Origin: Ostreococcus lucimarinus
Taxonomy: Eukaryota
Assembly: GCA_000092065.1 (NCBI GenBank)
Contig: CP000601.1
Reading direction: 5' to 3' (one strand)
Length of the DNA stretch: 64,000 nucleotides
Under the pieces are notes generated by a model that searched no databases, was not told the DNA's origin, and saw nothing but the letters and a program-made list of their open reading frames with translations. The stretch's first letter is position 1, and each line of letters opens with the position of its first letter. Position numbers and translations under genes: made by a program. Positions 5,315 to 58,098 of the stretch are shown one piece after another.

Positions 5315-8300
5315 ATGGTGACCGTGGTCGCGATCGGGGCGAGCGCGGCGCGCGGGATGGACGCGATGGGGAACGGAGAGGGGGCGCTGGGCGCGATTTG
5401 GACGACGGCGACGGCGGCGCTCGGGACGCTGCTGACGAGAGGGAGCTGGCGGACGAGCGCGACGGTCGGGACGTCGTGCGCGCTGCTCGCGGTGAATGGG
5501 GTGAATTTGTTTTTATTTTGCTCGTGGTGCACGCTGCAATTTCGGTGGATACACGAGTCGCACGCGGGCGCGGCGGCGACGTGCGAGCGTTTGATTTTCG
5601 CGCTGTGTCCGCCGACGACGACGACGATTCTGACGTGGGCGTTCGCGAGCGCGAGCGCGGGAGCTGAGAGAGCGGCGTTTTACGGCTCGGTCGTGTCGTT
5701 GATCACGCATCGGATGTTTTTGTTTCCGTGCGCGAGCGCGTGCGCGGCGGTGACGAAGACGAACGGGCCTCCGTCGGACAAGCGCTCGGCGTTGACCGAG
5801 AGCGACGCCGAGTACGCCACCGTGGCCACGCTCGGCTTACCCGTCGCGTTGTATTTATGGACGAACCTCGACACACTGTTCAAGTCCCTCGATCACGTCT
5901 TCGCGTGTGGGGCGTTGGTGACGGTCCCGGTGTTGTATTTAATAGCCGCCGGCACGGAGAAGTCGTTGTGGTGGCGCGCGCGCGGCGTCGACGTGGCGTC
6001 GAAAAGGATGGAAACCGCCGTGCTCCTCTTCGCACTCACTGGATTTGCGGTGAGCGTTGAAGGTGGAATAATATTTAGTGAATTTGCCGAGTACATCGAA
6101 ATCATGGCTCCTTTGAATTACATCATGGTGACGGTTTCCGTCCACAGCGCGCTGGCAGTTTTCGCCGCGTGCTACGCAAACGCCGTCGGCGACGGCGTCC
6201 CGACGGGTGCGGTGAAGGCGACGTTGGCTCTGTCTACGTCGACCGCAATTTGTGCTTTGGGTGCACCTCTGTGGATGATTCCGATCCCCATCGCCGGATC
6301 ATCGTCATTCGTCAAATATTATTACGAGGACCGAGAGCCGAAGGATTACGGCGTGTTTGCCGCGAGTTGCGTCGGATGCTTTTCGTGGTTTCTTTCGAAG
6401 AATTTCTGGTCACTCGATGTGCGCGTGGGAGCTTTCGACGTCAAACAATTGTGTGTCGCCATATTACTCCTCGCCGTGGCGGCTTTGGCTTTGCCAGCGG
6501 TGTTGAATACGAAAAGCGCGCGCGCGCCGACGGTTGGCGTCCTCGTCGTCTGTTACGTCTCGGCGCTCGCAACGATTGAACAAATCCTGAGTCAAGCGAC
6601 GCATGACGACGATTCTTTGATTTATCCACCATATTTGGTCATCGTCACTTCCATCAGCGGCTTCTTGGCGAGTCGAGGCCTCGTCATCAGCGGGAGAATC
6701 AGTCGCGAATTTGGCTGGGTGATGCAGAGCGTGTGCGGCGCAAAGCTCTCCATGCTCTTTGTTCGCGGTTTGAAGGAAATGTTCAGCGTCTTGGTGGTCG
6801 TGCTCGCCATCACCGCTCCGCACGCGATGTCACGGCGAATGACTCAATTATCTCCGGGCGCGAGCGTTGGTTATTGCGTCGCTTTGGTGTTCTCTTTGGT
6901 ATTCGCTCGGTTTGCGATGTTTGACGTTATATTTGAACTCTCGGGTCACCGACCGACGGACGCGACGCTCTTCGGTGGACTCCTCCTGATCACGGGGGCG
7001 AGCTTGGCGTCCGTGGTAACGCGACAAAGTTACGGTGATGACATGTTTAGCAAACGATTGATGATGCTCTTGAGTTTCTGTGGCGTCTTTCTCATCACCT
7101 TCCGACCGCCGATGCCTTGGAAGGGCGAGGTGGGCATGTGGTATGACGCCGAACACGTTCCCGACTCTGAAGAAGACGAAGCGAGAATGTACGGCGTGCG
7201 CGAGAACGCGCATCATGGATGGCCGAGCTGGTTGCTGATGTTAGCCGCGCTCACCGCGATATTCGCCGTCTCGTCTCCACGACAACAGACAAAATCAACG
7301 TCAACGATTCGAATCGCCTTAAGCGCCGTGTGCGGTGGGAGCGTTGGTTTATATATGGCGCTGGAATTCTTCGTCCAGCAAGTGGCGCTGACGGCACTAC
7401 TATTTGTCGCGTGTGCGCTGGTGGGAGTGTTCTTGTCTTTCACGTACAGCCCTTCGCCGAAGTCTTCGCGCTGGTTGCCTTACGTGTATTTATCGTTCGT
7501 CTCCGTTCTCGGCTTGGCGTACGTCACACAAATGGGTGGCTCAGACGAGACTGTGGACGACCATCAGGCGAGAATGGAAGGAAAATTCGGTGTCGTCGGC
7601 GTTTTCGCCGGGACTTCGCTGCAAATCGCGTTTGCTCTGAAGTTGAGAATCAAAACGAGCCTGGAGAGCGTGCAACATCGACGACGTCAAGGCGGTACTT
7701 CACCGTTCCTTCCCGCCACTGGTCGCAGTCGTCCGGAATATTTCCGCGGTGTCGCGAGCAGAAACGAGCACAGAGAACTCAAGGCAAAGGCGATCGCTTG
7801 GATGCCAATCATCGGGAACATCGCCACGCTCACGTCCTTTCTCGCGTGCGTGGTGCTGAGCGATGAGTTGGCCGATGGCTCCGCGTTTTCGGTCTTCGTC
7901 CTCGCGCCCATTCTGCTTCTTCTTCACCAAGACTCGGTGATATTTCCTATACTGGAAGACAGCCAACGATACGCTCCACCGCTCGCGATGATCGTGGGTA
8001 AGATGTGCTGGGACGCCGTCGCCGCCATCCTCGCCGGCCCGAACCGAGTTCACGTTCTCGCCGCGACCGCCTCCAAGTTGCCGTGGATGACGCTCAACGC
8101 GTTGAGTCTGCTCCTCGCTTCGGTGAATAGCATCAATTTGGTGCACTACCTCGCCACGAGCGTTCGCACGGACGGGATGACGCTCATCTTGACCGCCCCG
8201 CTCGCCGTCGTGGCGCCGTTTCTTTCAAAAATTCCCTCCGTGCGCGCGCTCGCCTTCACCAGTCTCATCGCCGTCGTCACCCAGCACACCCTCCAGCGTC

Positions 8301-45190: not shown

Positions 45191-45623
45191 CCGGAGGCTA
45201 CAGACGTCGCGGGCGACTAGCGTTCGCGACGTCGCAGGCGCGTCGTAGGTAAAAGTGTAATTCTAGCGCATCTTAGTTTGCAGTGGCGACCGCGCGCCGC
45301 GAGCGCGAAGTCCGACGACGCGAGCGAGACCAACGTCGGGCAAAAGTATGACGGTACGCGGATTCGAGCCGCGGTTTTTGCGGTATTGTTGAGGTGTACT
45401 TGTGCGCGTATTTAACGCGCCAGAATTCCATGTGTTTCCACAACGCAAGGTACTAACCACTATACGATACCGTCTCCGATTCCCGAGGGACTCTTGACGG
45501 GTTACGAACCATCAGCGCCGGGTCTCGCGCGTTTTCTCGCGTTCGCATTGTTACAGGCGCGCGACTTTCGGCGCGCGCGTCTCGCCGCGCGGAACACCCG
45601 CATTGCGCGCTCGTCTGCGTTCG

Positions 45624-46646
45624 ATGCCTTCGCCACCTCCGACCGTGCCCAAGGCGCGCCCGCGTTGCGGTGAACCCCGCCGCGTGCTCGTCACCGGTGG
45701 TGCCGGCTTCGTCGGGTCGCACCTCGTCGACGCGCTGTTGAAACGCGGCGACGAAGTCATCGTCATGGACAACTTTTTCACCGGCTCGCAGCGCAACTTG
45801 GAGCACTTGAAGGGGAATCCAAAGTTTGAAATCATCCGACACGACATCGTGACGCCGTTCTTGGTGGAGATCGACGAAGTGTATCACTTGGCGTGCCCGG
45901 CGTCGCCGATTCATTACAAATTCAATCCGGTGAAGACGATCAAAACCAACGTCTTGGGGACTATGAACGCGCTCGGGCTCGCGAAGCGGTGCAAGGCGAA
46001 ATTCTTGCTCACGAGCACGTCTGAGGTGTACGGCGATCCGCTCGAGCACCCGCAGACGGAATCGTACTGGGGCAACGTCAATCCGATCGGCGAACGCGCG
46101 TGTTACGATGAGGGCAAACGGTGCGCTGAAACGTTGGCGTTCGATTACCATCGCGAGCACGGTTTGGAAATTCGAGTGGCGAGAATTTTCAACACGTACG
46201 GACCGCGCATGGCGATGGATGACGGGCGCGTGGTGTCCAACTTCGTCGCGCAAGCGCTGGAGGGCAAACCTATGACAATCTACGGTGATGGCACGCAGAC
46301 GCGCTCGTTTCAATACGTCTCTGACCTAGTCGCCGGACTCATCGCGTTGATGGACAACGACTCGGGCTTCGTCGGTCCGGTGAATCTCGGTAACCCCGGT
46401 GAATTCACGATGCTCGAACTCGCGGAGAAGGTGCGCGAAGTCGTGAACCCGAACGCGGAAATCGTGTTCTGCGAGAACACCTCGGACGATCCGAGTCGGC
46501 GCAAGCCAGACATTTCGCTCGCGAAGGAAAAATTAGGCGGTTGGGAACCGAAGGTGAAGCTCGAGGACGGGCTCAAGCTCATGGTGGAAGATTTCCGGGA
46601 GAGAATCGAAGATAAGCGGGCGCGAGACGCGGCGGGAGGACGATGA
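45624..46646 (+). CDS. UXS: UDP-glucuronate decarboxylase (UDP-xylose synthase, UXS).
   Basis: [42 protein letters not shown]...[36 protein letters not shown]...[12 protein letters not shown]...[11 protein letters not shown] carries the SDR Rossmann and catalytic YxxxK/T motifs of UXS. Confidence 0.9.
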
Positions 46647-50860: not shown

Positions 50861-51829
50861 ATGCGCACGATGAAAAAGTGTGCGTCGCGTGACGTCACCG
50901 CACACGGCGCCGCGACGCCGCGACGCGAGACGGTCGCGATGCACGGCGTCGTGGACGTCGTCCTGGACGATGCCCCCGAACCGTCGTGCGCCGTCGCCGT
51001 CGACGCGCTGACGTACGCGTACCCGGGATGCGACGCGGTGCTGCGCGATTGGAGCCTGCGCCTGCCGCCGGGGTCGAGGTGCTTGCTTTCCGGCGCGAAC
51101 GGGGCGGGGAAGACGACGGCGCTGCACGTCATCGCGGGTAAAACCATGGTGAACGAAGACGTCGTGCGCGTGCTGGGACGACCGCCGTTTCACGACATCG
51201 CGCTCACGTGCGGGGGCGAGCTTTCTTACCTGGGCGCGCAGTGGCGGCGCAACATCGGAAGCGCGGGCGCGGACGTGCCCCTGCAAGGAGACATTTCGGC
51301 GAGGAAAATGATCGAGGGCGTCGCAGACGTGGACCCGGCGAGGCGAGAACGATTGGTGAAGCTGCTGGATGTGGATTTGGACTGGTCCATGAAGGCGTTG
51401 AGCGACGGACAACGACGTCGAGTTCAGATTTGTCTCGGACTCTTGAAGCCGTACAAGGTGTTGCTGTGCGACGAAATCACGGTGGATTTGGACATCCTCG
51501 GTCGGCTTGACTTGTTGGAGTTTTTCAAGGAAGAGTGCGAGGTGCGCGGGGCCACCATCGTGTACGCCACGCACATCTTCGATGGCATGGCGGATTGGAT
51601 GACGCACCTCGCGTTCACGTCCAACGGGCAGTTGAAGTATGGCGGCGCCAAGGTGGACATTCCGGAAATTCAAGGCACGAAACATTTATTGTCGACCATT
51701 GAAAAGTGGCTTCGCATCGATCGCGACGAGCGCCGCGCGCGAGAGGCGGCGGAACTCGCCGCCCCGACGGCGAAGAAAATCGACGCCGCGAGTCACTTCC
51801 AAACGAGGCACATGGCGTATTATAGATGA
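50861..51829 (+). CDS. ABC transporter ATP-binding protein, soluble ABCI / CAF16-like type.
   Basis: Walker A LSGANGAGKTTALHVIAGK, the signature LSDGQRRRVQICLGLL and Walker B VLLCDEITVDLD. No TM domain. Confidence 0.8.
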   Translation: MRTMKKCASRDVTAHGAATPRRETVAMHGVVDVVLDDAPEPSCAVAVDALTYAYPGCDAVLRDWSLRLPPGSRCLLSGANGAGKTTALHVIAGKTMVNEDVVRVLGRPPFHDIALTCGGELSYLGAQWRRNIGSAGADVPLQGDISARKMIEGVADVDPARRERLVKLLDVDLDWSMKALSDGQRRRVQICLGLLKPYKVLLCDEITVDLDILGRLDLLEFFKEECEVRGATIVYATHIFDGMADWMTHLAFTSNGQLKYGGAKVDIPEIQGTKHLLSTIEKWLRIDRDERRAREAAELAAPTAKKIDAASHFQTRHMAYYR

Positions 51830-52037: not shown

Positions 52038-53008
52038 TCACTTAGAGTGCTTGGCGCTGTTGCAAATCGTCACGAAAGCCTCGCCGATCAAAGACGCGCC
52101 GCCGACGAGAAAGCCGTCAATGTCCTCTTTCTGAGCTAATTCGTCGCAGTTGCCGGCGTTGACGCTGCCGCCGTACTGAATGCGAATCTTCGACGCAATC
52201 GCCGGAGAAATATTATCCGCGCACCACTTGCGAATGCCCGCGTGCACTTCTTGCGCTTGGTCCGGCGTCGCGACCTTGCCGGTACCGATCGCCCAAACGG
52301 GCTCGTACGCGATGACGATGTTTTCCCAGTCCGCCGCGGTCACGACGTCGTTCACCGCCTTGAGTTGCGCGCGGCAAATATCCAGAGTCGTGCCCGCTTC
52401 GCGCTGTTCCAACGTCTCACCGATGCACAAAGCAACCTTCAATCCCTTGCTCAAGGCATATTTGGTCTTCTCCCCGACGAACTCGTTCGTCTCGCCGCAG
52501 AGCGCGCGGCGTTCGCTGTGCCCGAGAATCACCCACGGAATGTCGGCGTCGGCGAGCATATCCGCGCTCACCTCACCCGTGAACGCCCCACCCGCGGAGA
52601 CCCAACAGTTCTGCGCGGCGACGGCGTAGTTTTTGTTGTTGAGCTCCTTTTGCACTCGAGGAATGAAGACGAACGGAGGCGCGACGTAGACGTCAACGTC
52701 GGCGTCGATTTTCCCAGAGTTTAGTTCCTTCACGAGCGACTTGACGGACTCCGCCGTGCCGTTGCACTTCCAGTTCCCGCCGACGATAAATTTACCCGTG
52801 CCCGCATTCACGACGACGCTTCGTCGCTGCGCTGCGGCGTGCACCTGCGCGAAGAATTCCAGAAAACCGCGTCGTCAGTCTCGCGCGTCGCTTTGGATAA
52901 CACGCCCCGATCGCGCCGTCGCGCGCCGTCGAGGTCGACGCGACGTCTCCCCTCGTCGGCGCGCGCGTGATCCCTCGCGACCGTCGGTGTCGACGCCATC
53001 GTCGCCAT
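52038..53008 (-). CDS. TPI: Triosephosphate isomerase. Catalytic exon 52038..52844. A probable transit-peptide exon at 52904..53008, with a 59-nt intron.
   Basis: [12 protein letters not shown] ... VILGHSERR ... [17 protein letters not shown] ... GGSVN are the TPI motifs. The catalytic ORF starts at GTG with no upstream in-frame ATG, and it is directly preceded by the acceptor ttctggaattcttcgcgcag. An ATG-initiated ORF 105 nt upstream ([35 protein letters not shown]) ends at a GT in phase 0. Confidence 0.85.
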
Positions 53009-53123
53009 CGACGCCTCGCGGTCCCCATCGTCGCGCGCATCCCGATCCGTCGCGTTCGATGGCGCGCCGATGGCGCCGATGGGGCGCCGATGGGGACACC
53101 GCCCCGTCGTCGTCCTCGGGCGC

Positions 53124-53210
53124 CGTTCGAACGCGTTCGCGCGCGTCGGCGTCGCGTCGATCGATCGTTCGCACCCTTTGCGATCGCGCCGTCGCCTTCA
53201 CGGCGCACGA
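53124..53210. repeat. Copy A of an exact 86-87 bp direct repeat (ttcgaacgcgttcgcgcgcgtcggcgtcgcgtcgatcgatcgttcgcaccctttgcgatcgcgccgtcgccttcacggcgcacga).
   Basis: The same 28-aa junk peptide VRREGDGAIAKGANDRSTRRRRARTRSN appears in two different minus-strand track ORFs (52792..54009 and 53756..54247). The DNA is identical over about 86 bp. Confidence 0.65.
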
Positions 53211-54009
53211 GGTTACTGTTGATGAGGTACATTGCCGTCACCCCAAGAAGGCCACCGACAGCAATCGAGCCCATCGCGTCGTACATCGGACTCCCCGTCA
53301 CTTCGCACGCGATGAGCGCCGTACCCGCGATGCCACAACCCAACACCGCGGCAGCATCTTCTGCGAGCACGGCCACGCTGGTGGGATCTTTACCAGATTT
53401 GATAAATTCCCTCAGCGTCATTCCTTGCGCCTTGGCGTTGTCGCGCAACGACTCGTACGCCACCTTTAACGAAAATCCTTCCAACAACGCCGACGCGCCC
53501 AACACCGCGATCCCAATACGTATGTTTTCAGACGGCATCGGGTCCATCAACCCGTGCATCCCGTGCATCACGCTAAACCCAGCACCGAGAAAGAAAATTC
53601 CCACCGCGGAAATCAACGAATACACGAACCAACAAGTGCGAGTGAGGGCTTCGACGCGAGAGGCGATGGTTTTGGACTCTCGCGAACGCTCGGCGGCTTG
53701 GCGCCCGGCGGCGCGCGCGAACGTTTCGTAATCTTGTTCGGCTTGAGAGATGAACTTACGACTCGCGGCCTCGGACTCGACTCTGAACTCGTTCACGAGT
53801 GACTCGATGCGCTCGCGCGCGATTCGTCGATTGCGTTCGGCGAGAGATTGCATCATTTGCTGGAATCCAACCATGTCGTAACGCGTCGAACGTTGACGCA
53901 CCGTCTCGCGCGTGTAGTACGCTCTCGCCGCGTCGTTCCACGCCCCCGACGTTCGCCCGGGCACGAGAACCACGGACCAGAGTAAAACCTTCGTAATCAC
54001 CGATCGCAC
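53206..54009 (-). CDS. Membrane protein homologous to the TM3-TM6 core of SLC30A9/ZnT9-type cation diffusion facilitators. N-terminal coiled-coil. The TM1-2 region and the C-terminal cytoplasmic domain are not found, and the 3-prime end is unresolved.
   Basis: SLISAVGIFFLGAGFSVMHGMHGLMDP and LRDNAKAQGMTLREFIKSGKDPTSVAVLAEDAAAVLGCGIAGTALIACEVTGSPMYDAMGSIAVGGLLGVTAMYLINSN parallel the human ZnT9 blocks SLISGVGIFMMGAGLSWYHGVMGLLHP and DPSTNVILLEDTAAVLGV..., as far as I recall them. After ...YLINSNL the track ORF runs through the 86-bp repeat into R-rich junk that overlaps TPI exon 1. Confidence 0.5.
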
Positions 54010-54132
54010 GCGCGCGCGTCGTCAGTCTCGCGTCGAGCCCGGTCGATCGCGCCGCGACACGCGCCTTCGCGATGATTCCGCGCGCGCCGCATCGCGTCGA
54101 CGAAATCGCGCACCTCGAGCGCGCAGATGAAG

Positions 54133-54219
54133 CGTTCGAACGCGTTCGCGCGCGTCGGCGTCGCGTCGATCGATCGTTCGCACCCTTTGCGATCGCGCCG
54201 TCGCCTTCACGGCGCACGA
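54133..54219. repeat. Copy B of the 86-87 bp direct repeat, about 1009 bp from copy A, in the spacer between the ZnT9-like gene and the SPP gene.
   Basis: As for copy A. Confidence 0.65.
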
Positions 54220-54349
54220 CGTCGTCGTCGTCGCCGACGGCGCGCACGTCACGCTAAACATCGCTCGCCGCACGCGTCGTCGCGAAGTGCCGGCGCGCGG
54301 TCGCCGAGGGCGATTTCGTTTTTTCGCGAACCATCGCGCGTCGATCGAC

Positions 54350-54410
54350 GGACGTCGATCGATCGATCGATCGATCGAACGATCGACCGATCGATCGATC
54401 GATCGACCGC
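54350..54410. repeat. (GATC/CGAT)n-rich microsatellite in the promoter spacer.
   Basis: tcgatcgatcgatcgatcgaacgatcgaccgatcgatcgatcgatcgacc. It shows up as the SIDRSIDRS peptides in the track. Confidence 0.5.
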
Positions 54411-54597
54411 GCGCCAAGCCCCCTCGCGCCCGCGCGCGCGCCCGCCCAGGGTCCAGCGGTCCAGGGGCGGCGTCGAATCAATCGTCCGCCCTTCCGCAGT
54501 GCGCGGCGTGACCCCGGCGCCGGCGTCGCGCGCGCTTCGACGACGACGGTCCCGACGATCGGACGACCCGACGAACGCGCGCGCGCACGGCCGGATC

Positions 54598-57500
54598 GAC
54601 ATGGCGTCGCGCGTCTCCGCGAGCGGGCGCGCGAGCGCGAACGCGCGAGGAATCGTGACGCCGCATCGTCGGCGTGGACGGACGGCGACGACGACGAAAC
54701 GGGCGACGCGAGGGCGACGGTGCGCGCGCGTCGTGCGCGCGAACGCGTCGTCGACGAACGGTGGGCCGGGGCGATGGGATCGCGCGATGCAGACGCTGTC
54801 ATCCGTCGCCGATCCCGCGGCGACGACGGCGATGCTGGACGAGCCTTTGACGCCGCACGAAGAGATTCGTCGAGGAACGCTCGCGAATGGGTTGAAGTAC
54901 GTCATCTTACCGAACAAAGTTCCCGAGGGGAGATTTGAGGCGCACTTGGAGATGCACGTCGGGTCCGTGGACGAACGCGAAGACGAGCAAGGGCTGGCGC
55001 ACCTCGTCGAGCACGTCACGTTTTTGGGTTCTCGAAAACGAGATCAGTGGCTCGGGAGCGGTACGCGAGGGAACGCGTACACGGATTTCCACCACACCGT
55101 GTTCCACATCCACGCACCGACGACGAACAAGGATGGACATTACATGCCGCCCAACGTGCTGGACATTCTCTACGACGTCGCGTTTGCGCCGCAACTCTTG
55201 GACACTCGCGTGGCGAAGGAGAAGAAAGCCGTGCTCGCCGAGGCTCAAATGATGAACACGATCGAGTACAGAGTGGACTGTCAGCTTCTAGAGCATTTGC
55301 ACTGGGACAACCTCTTGGGCACGCGATTTCCGATCGGTAAGCTCGATCAGGTGGAAGCGTGGCCGGCGCAGGCGGTGCGAGACTTTCACGCGCGCTGGTA
55401 TTTCCCAGCCAACGCCACGCTCTACGTCGTGGGCGACTTCGATGCCTCCGTGGACGAAGTCGAGGGTATGATTTCCGCCGCGTTCGACGAAGCGGCGCCC
55501 GCGGAAGGCGCGGAAGAAGCCGAGTCTCCTCTCAAACGTCACGCGGTGCGTCCTCCGGTGAAGCACGCGTACGGGGCGCCGTCGTACGAGCTCGACGAAA
55601 TTCAACGCTCGAACGACGAGGCGAAGGCGTCGGGCAAAGACGACCCGTTCTTGCCTTTCGTCGCCCCCGAGGGTAAAGTGTCCATGTTCCAGCACGAACA
55701 CTTGTCCAACGCGAGTTTCAACATATTTTCAAAATTGGCCGTCAAGCCGCTCGAAAAGATGGGCGACTTGCACCGGACGATTTTGCAGCGCATTGTGTTG
55801 TTGGTGTTGCAGAGCCGCATTCAGGCGAGATACGCGGAAACTAATGCGGATTACAAACGCATTGAACTCGATCATAGCGACAGCGCGAGAGAGGGGTGTT
55901 GCGTCAGCACCGTCACCGTGACGTGCGAGCCGAGAGAGTACGAATTCGCCTTGCAAGTCGCCGTCGAGGAATCTCGACGATTGCAAAAGTTTGGATTGAC
56001 GCCGAGCGAGCTCGATCGTTTTAAGGCGGCGATGTTGAGAGATTCTGAACAGCTCGCGCAGCAGGCGGGATGCGTGCCGAGCCTCGAAAATCTCGACTTT
56101 GTCATGGAGCAGGACGCCTGCGGACACGTCGTCATGGACCAGGTCGCGGGTCACGAGGCCTTGGTGCGCATGTCTGATTACATCACGCTCGAGGCGTGCA
56201 ACGGCGCGTGCGATGAGCTTTTAGGTTTTATCGGTGAGTACGGCGTGGAGAACAATCGCAAACCGAACAGCGGTAAGTGCACCGCCATCGTCGCGTGCGT
56301 CCCAGCGACGATGACGAACGTCGACGGCGAGACGGTGCCGTTCGATATCACGCCCGAGCGCATAGAACAAGTTTTGGCGGCGGATTACGGTGAAATCACA
56401 GAGCCCGAGGATATCTTTGTGCCGGAGGTGTTGATTGCGGATGACGAAATCAACGCCCTCATCGAGCAAACGGCGCCGACGTTTACCGAGGCGACGTATC
56501 ACGAGCCGACCGGCGTGTACCAGCGCACGCTGAGTAACGGTATTCGCGTCAACTACAAGGTGCTCGACGCCGAGCCTGGGAGCGCGTTCTTACGACTCGT
56601 CGTCCCGGGTGGTCGTTCGGTTGAGAGCCCGAACATCGGGCCCGGCGGAATCGGTTCGTCGGCGGTCGGTTTGCGCACCGTGCAAGAGGCTGGCGACGTC
56701 GGCGAATGGTCGCGCAAGCAAATCGAGCTCTTGACGATGCAACACTTGCTCGTGTACGACGTCGAGCCCGAGGTCGAGTACATGTTTTTGGATTCCGCGT
56801 TCGCCACGGATGGAGGCTTGAGGACTATTCTCGAGATCATGCACCTCACGCTGACGAAGCCGACGTGGGACGAGCAAGCGCTCGAGCGCGTCAAGGACAT
56901 TTACCGCATGTTTCAGATTAACACGAACAAGAACATCGAGTTGCTCACGCATGACACCGTCAACGCCGTGATTTACGAAGACCGAAGAATCATGGACCCG
57001 AACAAGGAGGCACTCCAGGCGCTGACGCTGGATGGCGTTCGAGACATGATCGAAGCTCAATTCGCGAGCGGGGCTTTGGAACTCAACATCGTCGGCGACA
57101 TCATCCCCGAAGAAGTCGACGAAATGGTTCTCGCGTTTATGGGATCGATTCAGACCAAGCCCGCGCCGCCGTTGCCGCAAGTGCCCCCGCTGAAATTGAA
57201 AGAGGTGCCAAAGGATGATCCGGTGCGCGCGCAGCGGTTGTGGTTGAAGGACAGCGACGAAAGAGCGTGCGCGGTGGCCGCCGGACCGGGGCCATCCATG
57301 TGGGCGCCGATGACGAGTCTGTACTCTGAAATTCCGAGCTTTGTCAATCAAGACGCGTACACGCCGGAACAGATTGCAGCCTTGCGCGATCCCGTGAACG
57401 AGGTGGCGTCGGCGAAGGGGAACCCATTCGCACAGCAGTCTGCGCGACGCGCGAATTCTTTGGCGACGTATTGCGCGGGGATGATGCTCGCAGAAGTTAT

Positions 57501-58098
57501 CGGTGGTAGATTGTTCACAACGGTGCGCGACGCGTTGGGTCTGACGTACGACTGCAACTTTACAATGTCGTTTGGATTACAAAACAACGACGCGACGACG
57601 TACAGGTTGTTGGTGACGTCGACGCCGGAAAAAATTGATGAAGCTCTCAACGCCGGCGTGCGCGTGTTGCGTGGATTTCAGATGCAGCGCGTGAGCCAAC
57701 GCGAGGTCGATCGCGCGCGTTTAACGCTGTTGAGTCGTCATGAGATGGATTTGAAGACGAACAACTACTGGGCCGATTTGATGCAGTGCACCAACACTCC
57801 AGATTTAGCGCCGCTGAAGAAGATTCAGTGCGTCGCTGATTTACCCCTCATGTACGACGCGATGACCGTGGACGATCTTCAAGAAGTTTACGATCGTCTC
57901 GGCTTGAGCGAAGGCGAGATCTTCACCAGCGTGACGATCGCCGGGCAGACAGAGCCGCCTCCATTCCTGTCGAAGAAGGACGTCGACGCCGCCGCGCTCG
58001 CCGCCCAGACGCTGACCGCCGCGCTTGGTGGCATCAACATCGCCGAAGCGATCAAGAGATTGAAGAAAGAGCAGTCTCCGTCCGCGAGCGCGGAGTAG
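54598..58098 (+). CDS. SPP: Stromal processing peptidase (chloroplast transit-peptide peptidase; M16 insulinase/pitrilysin family).
   Basis: The inverted zinc motif in LANGLKYVILPNKVPEGRFEAHLEMHVGSVDEREDEQGLAHLVEHVTFLGSRKR, co-linear with plant SPP. A long four-domain M16 architecture of about 1170 aa. The R/S/T-rich presequence begins MASRVSASGRASANARG at 54598, and the track start at 54127 lies in spacer repeats. Confidence 0.85.
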   Translation, partial: DMASRVSASGRASANARGIVTPHRRRGRTATTTKRATRGRRCARVVRANASSTNGGPGRWDRAMQTLSSVADPAATTAMLDEPLTPHEEIRRGTLANGLKYVILPNKVPEGRFEAHLEMHVGSVDEREDEQGLAHLVEHVTFLGSRKRDQWLGSGTRGNAYTDFHHTVFHIHAPTTNKDGHYMPPNVLDILYDVAFAPQLLDTRVAKEKKAVLAEAQMMNTIEYRVDCQLLEHLHWDNLLGTRFPIGKLDQVEAWPAQAVRDFHARWYFPANATLYVVGDFDASVDEVEGMISAAFDEAAPAEGAEEAESPLKRHAVRPPVKHAYGAPSYELDEIQRSNDEAKASGKDDPFLPFVAPEGKVSMFQHEHLSNASFNIFSKLAVKPLEKMGDLHRTILQRIVLLVLQSRIQARYAETNADYKRIELDHSDSAREGCCVSTVTVTCEPREYEFALQVAVEESRRLQKFGLTPSELDRFKAAMLRDSEQLAQQAGCVPSLENLDFVMEQDACGHVVMDQVAGHEALVRMSDYITLEACNGACDELLGFIGEYGVENNRKPNSGKCTAIVACVPATMTNVDGETVPFDITPERIEQVLAADYGEITEPEDIFVPEVLIADDEINALIEQTAPTFTEATYHEPTGVYQRTLSNGIRVNYKVLDAEPGSAFLRLVVPGGRSVESPNIGPGGIGSSAVGLRTVQEAGDVGEWSRKQIELLTMQHLLVYDVEPEVEYMFLDSAFATDGGLRTILEIMHLTLTKPTWDEQALERVKDIYRMFQINTNKNIELLTHDTVNAVIYEDRRIMDPNKEALQALTLDGVRDMIEAQFASGALELNIVGDIIPEEVDEMVLAFMGSIQTKPAPPLPQVPPLKLKEVPKDDPVRAQRLWLKDSDERACAVAAGPGPSMWAPMTSLYSEIPSFVNQDAYTPEQIAALRDPVNEVASAKGNPFAQQSARRANSLATYCAGMMLAEVIGGRLFTTVRDALGLTYDCNFTMSFGLQNNDATTYRLLVTSTPEKIDEALNAGVRVLRGFQMQRVSQREVDRARLTLLSRHEMDLKTNNYWADLMQCTNTPDLAPLKKIQCVADLPLMYDAMTVDDLQEVYDRLGLSEGEIFTSVTIAGQTEPPPFLSKKDVDAAALAAQTLTAALGGINIAEAIKRLKKEQSPSASAE

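Follow-up and report, generated by a model that had tools for sequence, protein, structure and literature searches.

Chloroplast triosephosphate isomerase (TPI) has been described from Chlamydomonas reinhardtii (solved structure 4mkn) and Arabidopsis thaliana (4ohq), where the enzyme is nuclear-encoded, is made with a cleavable N-terminal transit peptide and has an experimentally grounded localization; the Chlamydomonas TPI is chloroplastic (PMC3838966). The closest described gene is that of Ostreococcus tauri (CEF98905.1 / XP_022839536.1, 295 aa), which consists of two exons separated by a phase-0 intron that lies inside the presequence, and a second entry from this species (OUS47640.1, 346 aa) reads through that intron. 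The transit peptides of green algae are usually rich in Ser, Thr and Ala, basic and free of acidic residues. As regards the joining of gene pieces at one site, templated or ‘filler’ insertions at repaired breaks and the capture of gene fragments by Pack-MULEs or Helitrons are known modes.

The window analysed here, meaning the whole 64,000-nt stretch of Ostreococcus lucimarinus DNA, contains one TPI, and we put at about 90% the probability that this locus is a nuclear gene for a plastid-type TPI composed of two exons. The gene itself is ordinary, since the O. tauri ortholog with the same intron is already annotated. The outcome is a corrected gene model, in which the upstream leader exon is 1.3 kb away in this genome and 330 nt away in the species as a whole.

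The TPI gene and its leader exon

The open reading frame (ORF) at 52038..52844 on the minus strand encodes a complete TIM-barrel domain (PF00121, TIM, E=1.9e-92, residues 20–263), with a match of 309.7 bits against a cut-off of 20.1 that covers profile positions 2–244 of 245, and its product is a member of the TPI family. The catalytic Asn/Lys, His and Glu motifs can be read in the translation and are aligned with those of solved TPIs; the latter, including the Arabidopsis and Chlamydomonas chloroplast enzymes, match the spliced protein from query residue ~40–44 onward with E-values down to 4e-105. The closest proteins are metagenome and Logan calls at 85–98% identity, and one of their 90% clusters (that of P0004) includes the O. 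tauri protein (CEF98905.1 / XP_022839536.1). The window's TPI coding sequence is undamaged and encodes the wild protein without change. As the preliminary description had stated, the TIM ORF opens at GTG 52844 directly behind the acceptor ttctggaattcttcgcgcag and has no upstream in-frame ATG; an in-frame TGA lies at 52877–52875, and the first in-frame ATG is situated ~95 codons inside the TIM barrel, past the catalytic Asn/Lys.

The origin of the start codon was revealed by three cDNA-like, intron-less contigs from separate ENA assemblies (L012–L014), which join 54184 directly to 52844 and align to the window as 54291–54180 and then from 52845 onward with 99–100% identity, exon 2 being co-linear at 99.8–100%. 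For the junction 54184^52844, a single GT-AG placement is possible, whereby exon 1 ends in ...CAAAGG and the intron reads GTGCGA...GCGCAG, and the gene comprises the following features.

54262..54291, minus strand: 5′ UTR and transcription start (~54288–54291), the common 5′ end GGGGGACTTCGCG... of the three cDNA-like contigs
54184..54261, minus strand: TPI exon 1, coding part, 26 codons, MFSVTCAPSATTTTSCAVKATARSQR, joined to exon 2 in L012–L014
52845..54183, minus strand: intron 1 in this window, 1339 nt, GTGCGA...CTGAC...CAG, phase 0; the ordinary allele has 330 nt
52904..53008, minus strand: exon 1 as proposed earlier; intron sequence, ends ...DRG, absent from L012–L014
52895..52901, minus strand: GTTATCC motif, overlapping the GTGTTA; found in the TPI intron of all six Ostreococcus lineages examined, inverted in O. 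tauri
52845..52882, minus strand: 3′ end of the intron, with branch motif GAGACTGACG (52882–52873), T-rich tract and CAG
52038..52844, minus strand: TPI exon 2, holding the last 14 presequence residues, the whole TIM barrel and the stop (52040–52038)

Because 54184 is joined to 52844 in these contigs, the acceptor is real and a leader exon exists. The donor GTGCGA is at 54183, the branch CTGAC occupies 52878–52874 with its branch A at 52875, 30 nt from the 3′ splice site, and the acceptor CAG is at 52847–52845. Counted from ~54288, the leader of exon 1 before its coding part is 27 nt. The three contigs have an identical first base and a few extra G that are unmatched in the genome at one position, and from the shared 5′ end, the extra G and the precise GT-AG removal we infer that they are cDNA; a genomic allele that has lost its intron is a possible alternative. 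Their source is natural populations, in whose genomes the insertion described below is missing, so that their junction speaks for the short-intron allele and does not demonstrate correct splicing of the 1339-nt intron. The same junction is reflected in a collection of 15 billion proteins, which holds the exact 294-aa spliced protein (from ATG 54261) as P0288, found in 8 further contigs, together with the 298-aa P0131 and P0132 (6 contigs; N-terminus (M/V)RRAMFSVTCAPSATTTTSCAVKATARSQR), of which P0132 is encoded by L012–L014. Transcription would accordingly be expected to begin at ~54288 on the minus strand and to pass through exon 1, after which removal of the phase-0 GT-AG intron would join exon 1 to exon 2 (52844–52038).

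Two other readings of the start of the gene were weighed against this model. The preliminary description had taken 53008–52904 as exon 1, spliced from GTGTTA, or from a GT after codon 9 or 23, to 52845 and yielding a 35-aa leader. Parts of that description hold: the ATG does come from a short upstream exon, which also encodes the beginning of a leader resembling a transit peptide, the product is probably a plastid-type isoform, and the acceptor 52845/52844 exceeds chance expectation, being used in the cDNA-like contigs and retained, as CTGAC and YAG/G, in five other Ostreococcus lineages. The exon, the donor and the peptide were nevertheless misidentified. The upstream ATG ORF exists, but its ATG stands 164 nt before the GTG, 105 nt being the length of the proposed exon, and the phase-0 GTGTTA at 52903, 59 nt before the acceptor, is present but is not the donor used, which is GTGCGA at 54183. 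An ATG, an open frame and a phase-0 GT are thus all available in the window, and the ORF (52808..53008 on the minus strand, 66 aa, in a frame different from that of the TIM ORF) is intact in most conspecific contigs; however, 44 ORFs of at least 30 aa overlap the same 3.5-kb G+C-rich stretch, and therefore its occurrence is no more than chance. The segment is spliced out in L012–L014, and the protein collection, which does contain the true 294-aa product, has neither the predicted one of 303 aa nor the alternative of 277 aa that a donor after codon 9 would give. In the sister lineage L001, the two ATGs of the proposed exon are replaced by ATC and ATT, its frame is disrupted by an indel of 1 nt, the codon-9 donor no longer has its GT, and GTTATC stands in place of GTGTTA; one conspecific contig carries a 2-nt deletion (52916–52915) inside the 66-aa ORF, and across 29 conspecific contigs all variants over the 493 nt compared sit within the proposed-exon ORF. 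The encoded peptide is rich in Asp/Glu, with 6 acidic residues within residues 13–35, unlike a transit peptide, whereas the real leader has 0; and the overlap of GTGTTA with GTTATCC, which is inverted in O. tauri, points to the behaviour of a DNA element and not of a donor. Taken with these observations, an exon at 53008–52904 is very improbable. Even less credible is a gene with no intron, starting at GTG 52844 or GTG 52811 and encoding a leaderless cytosolic TPI: metagenome gene callers do give products of 268 aa and 257 aa from these GTGs, but the organism is a eukaryote, an AUG exon is spliced exactly at 52844 in the cDNA-like contigs, and the 14 residues before GTGKF lie outside the TIM fold and in all relatives make up the end of the leader. 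The two-exon model with the donor at 54183 is the one retained in the following. Micro-exons near the acceptor (MMND/GTGCGA in L008 and MGAR/GTTTGG in O. tauri) were also considered and set aside, as the cDNA-like contigs and the O. tauri model put a longer exon 1 further upstream.

Conservation across Ostreococcus and probable plastid targeting

The sister lineage L001, which has 94.6% DNA identity to the window, was compared with it after removal of the insertion. In the 78-nt coding part of exon 1, there is one substitution, which is synonymous, and one in-frame 3-nt insertion, and the 807 nt of exon 2 carry 30 substitutions and no indels. Over its 106 alignment columns, the proposed-exon ORF shows 10 substitutions and one 1-nt indel, and the rest of the intron (235 columns) shows 19 substitutions and five indels of 7, 2, 7, 1 and 1 nt. 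By this comparison, exon 1 evolves as coding sequence, and the proposed-exon ORF changes in the manner of the remaining intron. In compact genomes with a high G+C content, an ATG ORF beside a good acceptor is not evidence of an exon, and a 95%-identical relative decides such cases fast.

The position and phase of the intron are conserved. GT-AG intron signals of the form GTGCGA/CTGAC/CAG in phase 0 occur in the window, in L001 and in O. tauri, with candidates in three more lineages, and CTGAC followed by YAG/G is conserved in L001, L002, L004, L007 and L008. The intron measures 330 nt in L017, 333 nt in L001 with the same donor, and 301 nt in O. tauri (L004), where exon 1 ends MGVARCAAVRASVARTTVSRREGRSSAQ/GTGCGAA, equal to the NCBI model P0151. 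The three candidates, all in phase 0, are ...GRRSNAAK/GTACGAC with a 488-nt intron in L002, ...DGFMARVE/GTACGTG with 379 nt in L007 and ...DAFIMRVE/GTACGAA with 478 nt in L008, the exon-1 ends of the last two being homologous. O. tauri, L002, L007 and L008 share the CTGAC branch and the YAG/G acceptor, and their exon 2, in phase 0, starts with a stretch rich in Ser, Thr, Arg and Ala. The O. tauri gene is an ortholog with 87% identity in the barrel, and it resembles the window gene in its two exons, its phase-0 intron inside the presequence, its GTGCGAA donor and CTGAC branch, and a leader of similar length and composition. It differs in that the exon-1 peptide has diverged almost wholly (MGVARCAAVRASVARTTVSRREGRSSAQ in O. 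tauri versus MFSVTCAPSATTTTSCAVKATARSQR in the window) and in intron length (301 nt, as compared with 330 nt for the wild allele and 1339 nt for the window).

The GTTATCC motif found in every one of these introns has 3 copies in the 64-kb window versus 3.3 expected, and its presence in every TPI intron is therefore not a composition effect. GTTATCC, or (T)GGATAAC on the opposite strand, may be an orientation-independent regulatory site, and we take it to resemble I-box or MYB-type GGATAA elements.

Residues 1 to ~40 of the 294-residue spliced protein fall outside every PDB TPI alignment and constitute an N-terminal extension, which contains 9 Ala, 6 Thr, 5 Ser, 4 Arg and 1 Lys with no Asp or Glu. 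Comparable leaders are present in the transcript-derived P0198 of Micromonas pusilla and in other prasinophyte MMETSP proteins. The ~40-residue leader is best read as a chloroplast transit peptide, plastid targeting being the best-supported interpretation of its composition and position. On this reading, the protein would be imported and cleaved near VNA/GTGKF (a predicted site), and the enzyme would then act in the Calvin cycle and in plastid glycolysis. The chloroplast TPIs of Chlamydomonas and Arabidopsis are alike in family and catalytic motifs, and their mature chains align from residue ~40 of the window protein; their localization is experimentally grounded, whereas that of the window TPI is deduced from its leader. 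Sequence identity does not tell the compartments apart, as plastid and cytosolic plant TPIs score alike, and the literature searched gave nothing usable on a second (cytosolic) TPI in Ostreococcus or on the duplicated region of O. lucimarinus.

A different arrangement of the N-terminus was observed in the L007/L008 lineage (P0005, P0006, P0160), in which the mature N-terminus begins with Met (MKGTGKF or MQGTGKF). An MMETSP transcript ORF from this lineage, called ‘complete’ at 255 aa, starts with MQGTGKF, and the upstream exon 1 and in-frame leader are also there. From these sequences, the L007/L008 lineage could make both plastid and leaderless forms. Unlike that lineage, the window TPI has no internal Met at its mature N-terminus.

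Neighbouring genes

An ABC/CAF16-like gene (50861..51829, plus strand) is convergent with TPI, with 208 nt between the two stop codons, and the last 296 residues of its ORF match an NCBI protein of O. lucimarinus CCE9901 exactly; the window is accordingly assigned to O. lucimarinus or a conspecific. The contig L012 runs through TPI and the ABC gene and ends at 50902, near the likely ABC transcription start; as a start codon for the ABC protein, the NCBI choice at 50939 agrees better with this end point than does the ABC ORF's own first ATG. That L012 spans both genes suggests overlapping TPI and ABC 3′ ends. On the ABC gene side, positions 6077–6428 of L001 correspond to 45607–45959 of the window, where the segment is ~5 kb away and inverted, and this difference would represent a small rearrangement between close relatives.

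On the other side, a gene for a large M16 peptidase (Peptidase_M16 and M16_C domains; 54601–58098, plus strand) is divergent from TPI. The N-terminus that it probably has, MASRVSASGRASANARG..., looks like a transit peptide, and the protein is similar to the stromal processing peptidase in size and domains; a longer ORF from 54127 is probably a spurious upstream read-through. If this M16 peptidase is the stromal processing peptidase, it sits beside one of its own substrates, TPI. The ~310-nt region between the TPI start (~54288) and the M16 ATG (54601) includes a palindromic (GATC)n/(TCGA)n microsatellite of ~70 nt (54347–54417), at which several metagenome contigs end or diverge and at which spurious microRNA-model matches arise.

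The 1009-bp insertion and splicing of the intron

The difference in length between the intron of the window and that of the ordinary allele is due to an insertion with the following parts.

53124–54132, minus strand: insertion inside the TPI intron, 1009 bp, made of a 922-nt mosaic and an 87-nt duplicate
53899..54132, minus strand: mosaic piece 0, ~234 nt, part of the P0255 gene including its own intron
between pieces 0 and 1: filler of 19 nt
53638..53879, minus strand: mosaic piece 1, exact 242-nt copy of codons 160–239 of the P0214 gene, an unrelated gene
between pieces 1 and 2: filler of 7 nt
53211..53630, minus strand: mosaic piece 2, exact 420-nt copy of an internal part of a ZnT9-type cation-diffusion-facilitator gene (residues equivalent to 192–330)
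53124..53210, minus strand: duplicate, 87 nt, made of the exon-1 tail (36 nt) and the intron start (51 nt), in which the GTGCGA donor recurs unchanged (53174)

The insertion is absent from all 30 conspecific metagenome contigs (30/30) and from L001, in all of which 54133 abuts 53210. These conspecific contigs are 99.0–99.97% identical to the window and, with L001 included, have introns of 330–333 nt; ten of them, taken with 10-kb flanks, are co-linear with the window over at least 20 kb. The duplicate forms part of a direct repeat (53124–53213 and 54133–54222, 99% identical) that is single-copy in the 30 conspecific contigs and L001.

Exact DNA identity to a parent locus was established for two of the pieces, and piece 0 was assigned by protein (P0255). 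Piece 1 is 100% identical in DNA to L025 3731–3972, with 80/80 residues identical, and piece 2 is 100% identical to L037, the home of the full-length gene (PF01545, E=2.2e-10). Across the gap in piece 0, P0255 reads ...FICALE/VLLWSVVLVPGRTSGAWNDAARAYYTRETV, and 30 of 31 residues match at 53991–53899; the gap has the donor GTGCGCG at 54113, the branch motif GAGACTGACG at 54029–54020 and the acceptor AG at 53990–53989, and is best explained as an intron of the parent gene. Around the branch site, the captured intron and that of TPI are identical over 18 nt, CGCGAGACTGACGACGCG, of which the 10-mer GAGACTGACG is found in the window only at 54020–54029 and 52873–52882 (0.29 copies expected; at least two copies in 5 of 100 shuffles). 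The 18-nt identity probably reflects a shared, extended branch-site consensus, and it may also be coincidence.

All three pieces are in sense orientation and in one frame, for which the odds by chance are ~1 in 36, and this accounts for the spurious ‘cation efflux’ ORF of 405 aa ahead of TPI. This CDF-like ORF (52792–54009) was rejected as a real upstream gene, as it is a chimeric read-through of three gene pieces and the TPI intron. An origin from mRNA by retro-copying, which sense, in-frame pieces suggest, is weakened by the intron kept in piece 0, which argues for a DNA source and against an mRNA source. Exact look-up of the chimeric ORF in its 405-aa and 360-aa versions gave no record of another assembly with the insertion. 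Terminal inverted repeats, a short target duplication, Helitron termini and other copies in the window were searched for and none was found, so the insertion does not qualify as a transposable element, and an Rfam search of the intron returned nothing at gathering score, the sub-threshold microRNA-model matches being strongest on the (GATC)n tract. Like templated or filler insertions and Pack-MULE or Helitron capture, the insertion unites, at a single site, several short stretches from host genes that are not linked, filler of a few bases and a local duplication; unlike Pack-MULEs and Helitrons, it is without terminal inverted repeats, a fixed short target duplication and Helitron termini, and its duplication is 87 nt.

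Either the insertion is peculiar to the strain that was sequenced, or it is artefactual, and its structure looks more like template-copying break repair than mis-assembly. We give somewhat less than an even chance to the insertion being genuine and very recent in this strain, produced by break-repair copying from three unlinked genes. In that event, a break in the TPI intron would have been repaired with copies of ~234, 242 and 420 nt from these genes, and copying would have resumed 87 nt upstream, thereby duplicating the 5′ splice site. That the insertion arose in assembly or cloning and that the real intron is 330 nt is unlikely, yet has points in its favour: the insertion is seen nowhere else, being missing from the 30 conspecific contigs and unrecorded in both versions of the chimeric ORF, and pieces of it are 100% identical to their parent genes (L037, L025). 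Against an artefact, the insert has TPI intron sequence on either flank and a clean target duplication of 87 nt, and three short pieces with 7–19 nt fillers are typical of break repair and unlike a chimeric clone or a mis-joined contig. Should the insertion be real, it may disturb splicing of this allele, because the foreign acceptor at 53990–53989 and the second donor at 53174 delimit an 814-nt pseudo-exon that would be included unless the splicing machinery skips both sites. As 814 mod 3 = 1, inclusion is computed to end the frame 16 codons into exon 2 and to give a 314-aa product without the TIM barrel. A tentative possibility, to which we attach some doubt, is that the TPI copy of this genome has been disabled or weakened by the pseudo-exon and that the strain lives on a second TPI or on a minority of correct mRNA. 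The branch motif GAGACTGACG shared by the 3′ end of the captured intron and the TPI intron, the predicted loss of the TIM domain and the absence of the insertion from all wild contigs are in keeping with such a loss, and so is the occurrence of the identical ABC protein at two loci of O. lucimarinus CCE9901 (ABO97967.1 and ABP01226.1), whereby the region may exist twice. The TPI neighbourhood may be duplicated in that genome, with one copy free to decay or the insertion tolerated; the O. lucimarinus genome paper reportedly describes a small chromosome made of duplicated segments. On the other hand, the TPI coding sequence is intact and identical to the wild protein, and the whole insert can be skipped.

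Seen as a real event of break-repair copying, the insertion would be a natural, sudden fourfold expansion of an intron that placed a ready-made pseudo-exon in an essential Calvin-cycle gene. It would indicate that break repair can lengthen an intron and build an exon-like unit in one step, and it offers a testable case of splice-site choice among competitors in a short-intron alga.
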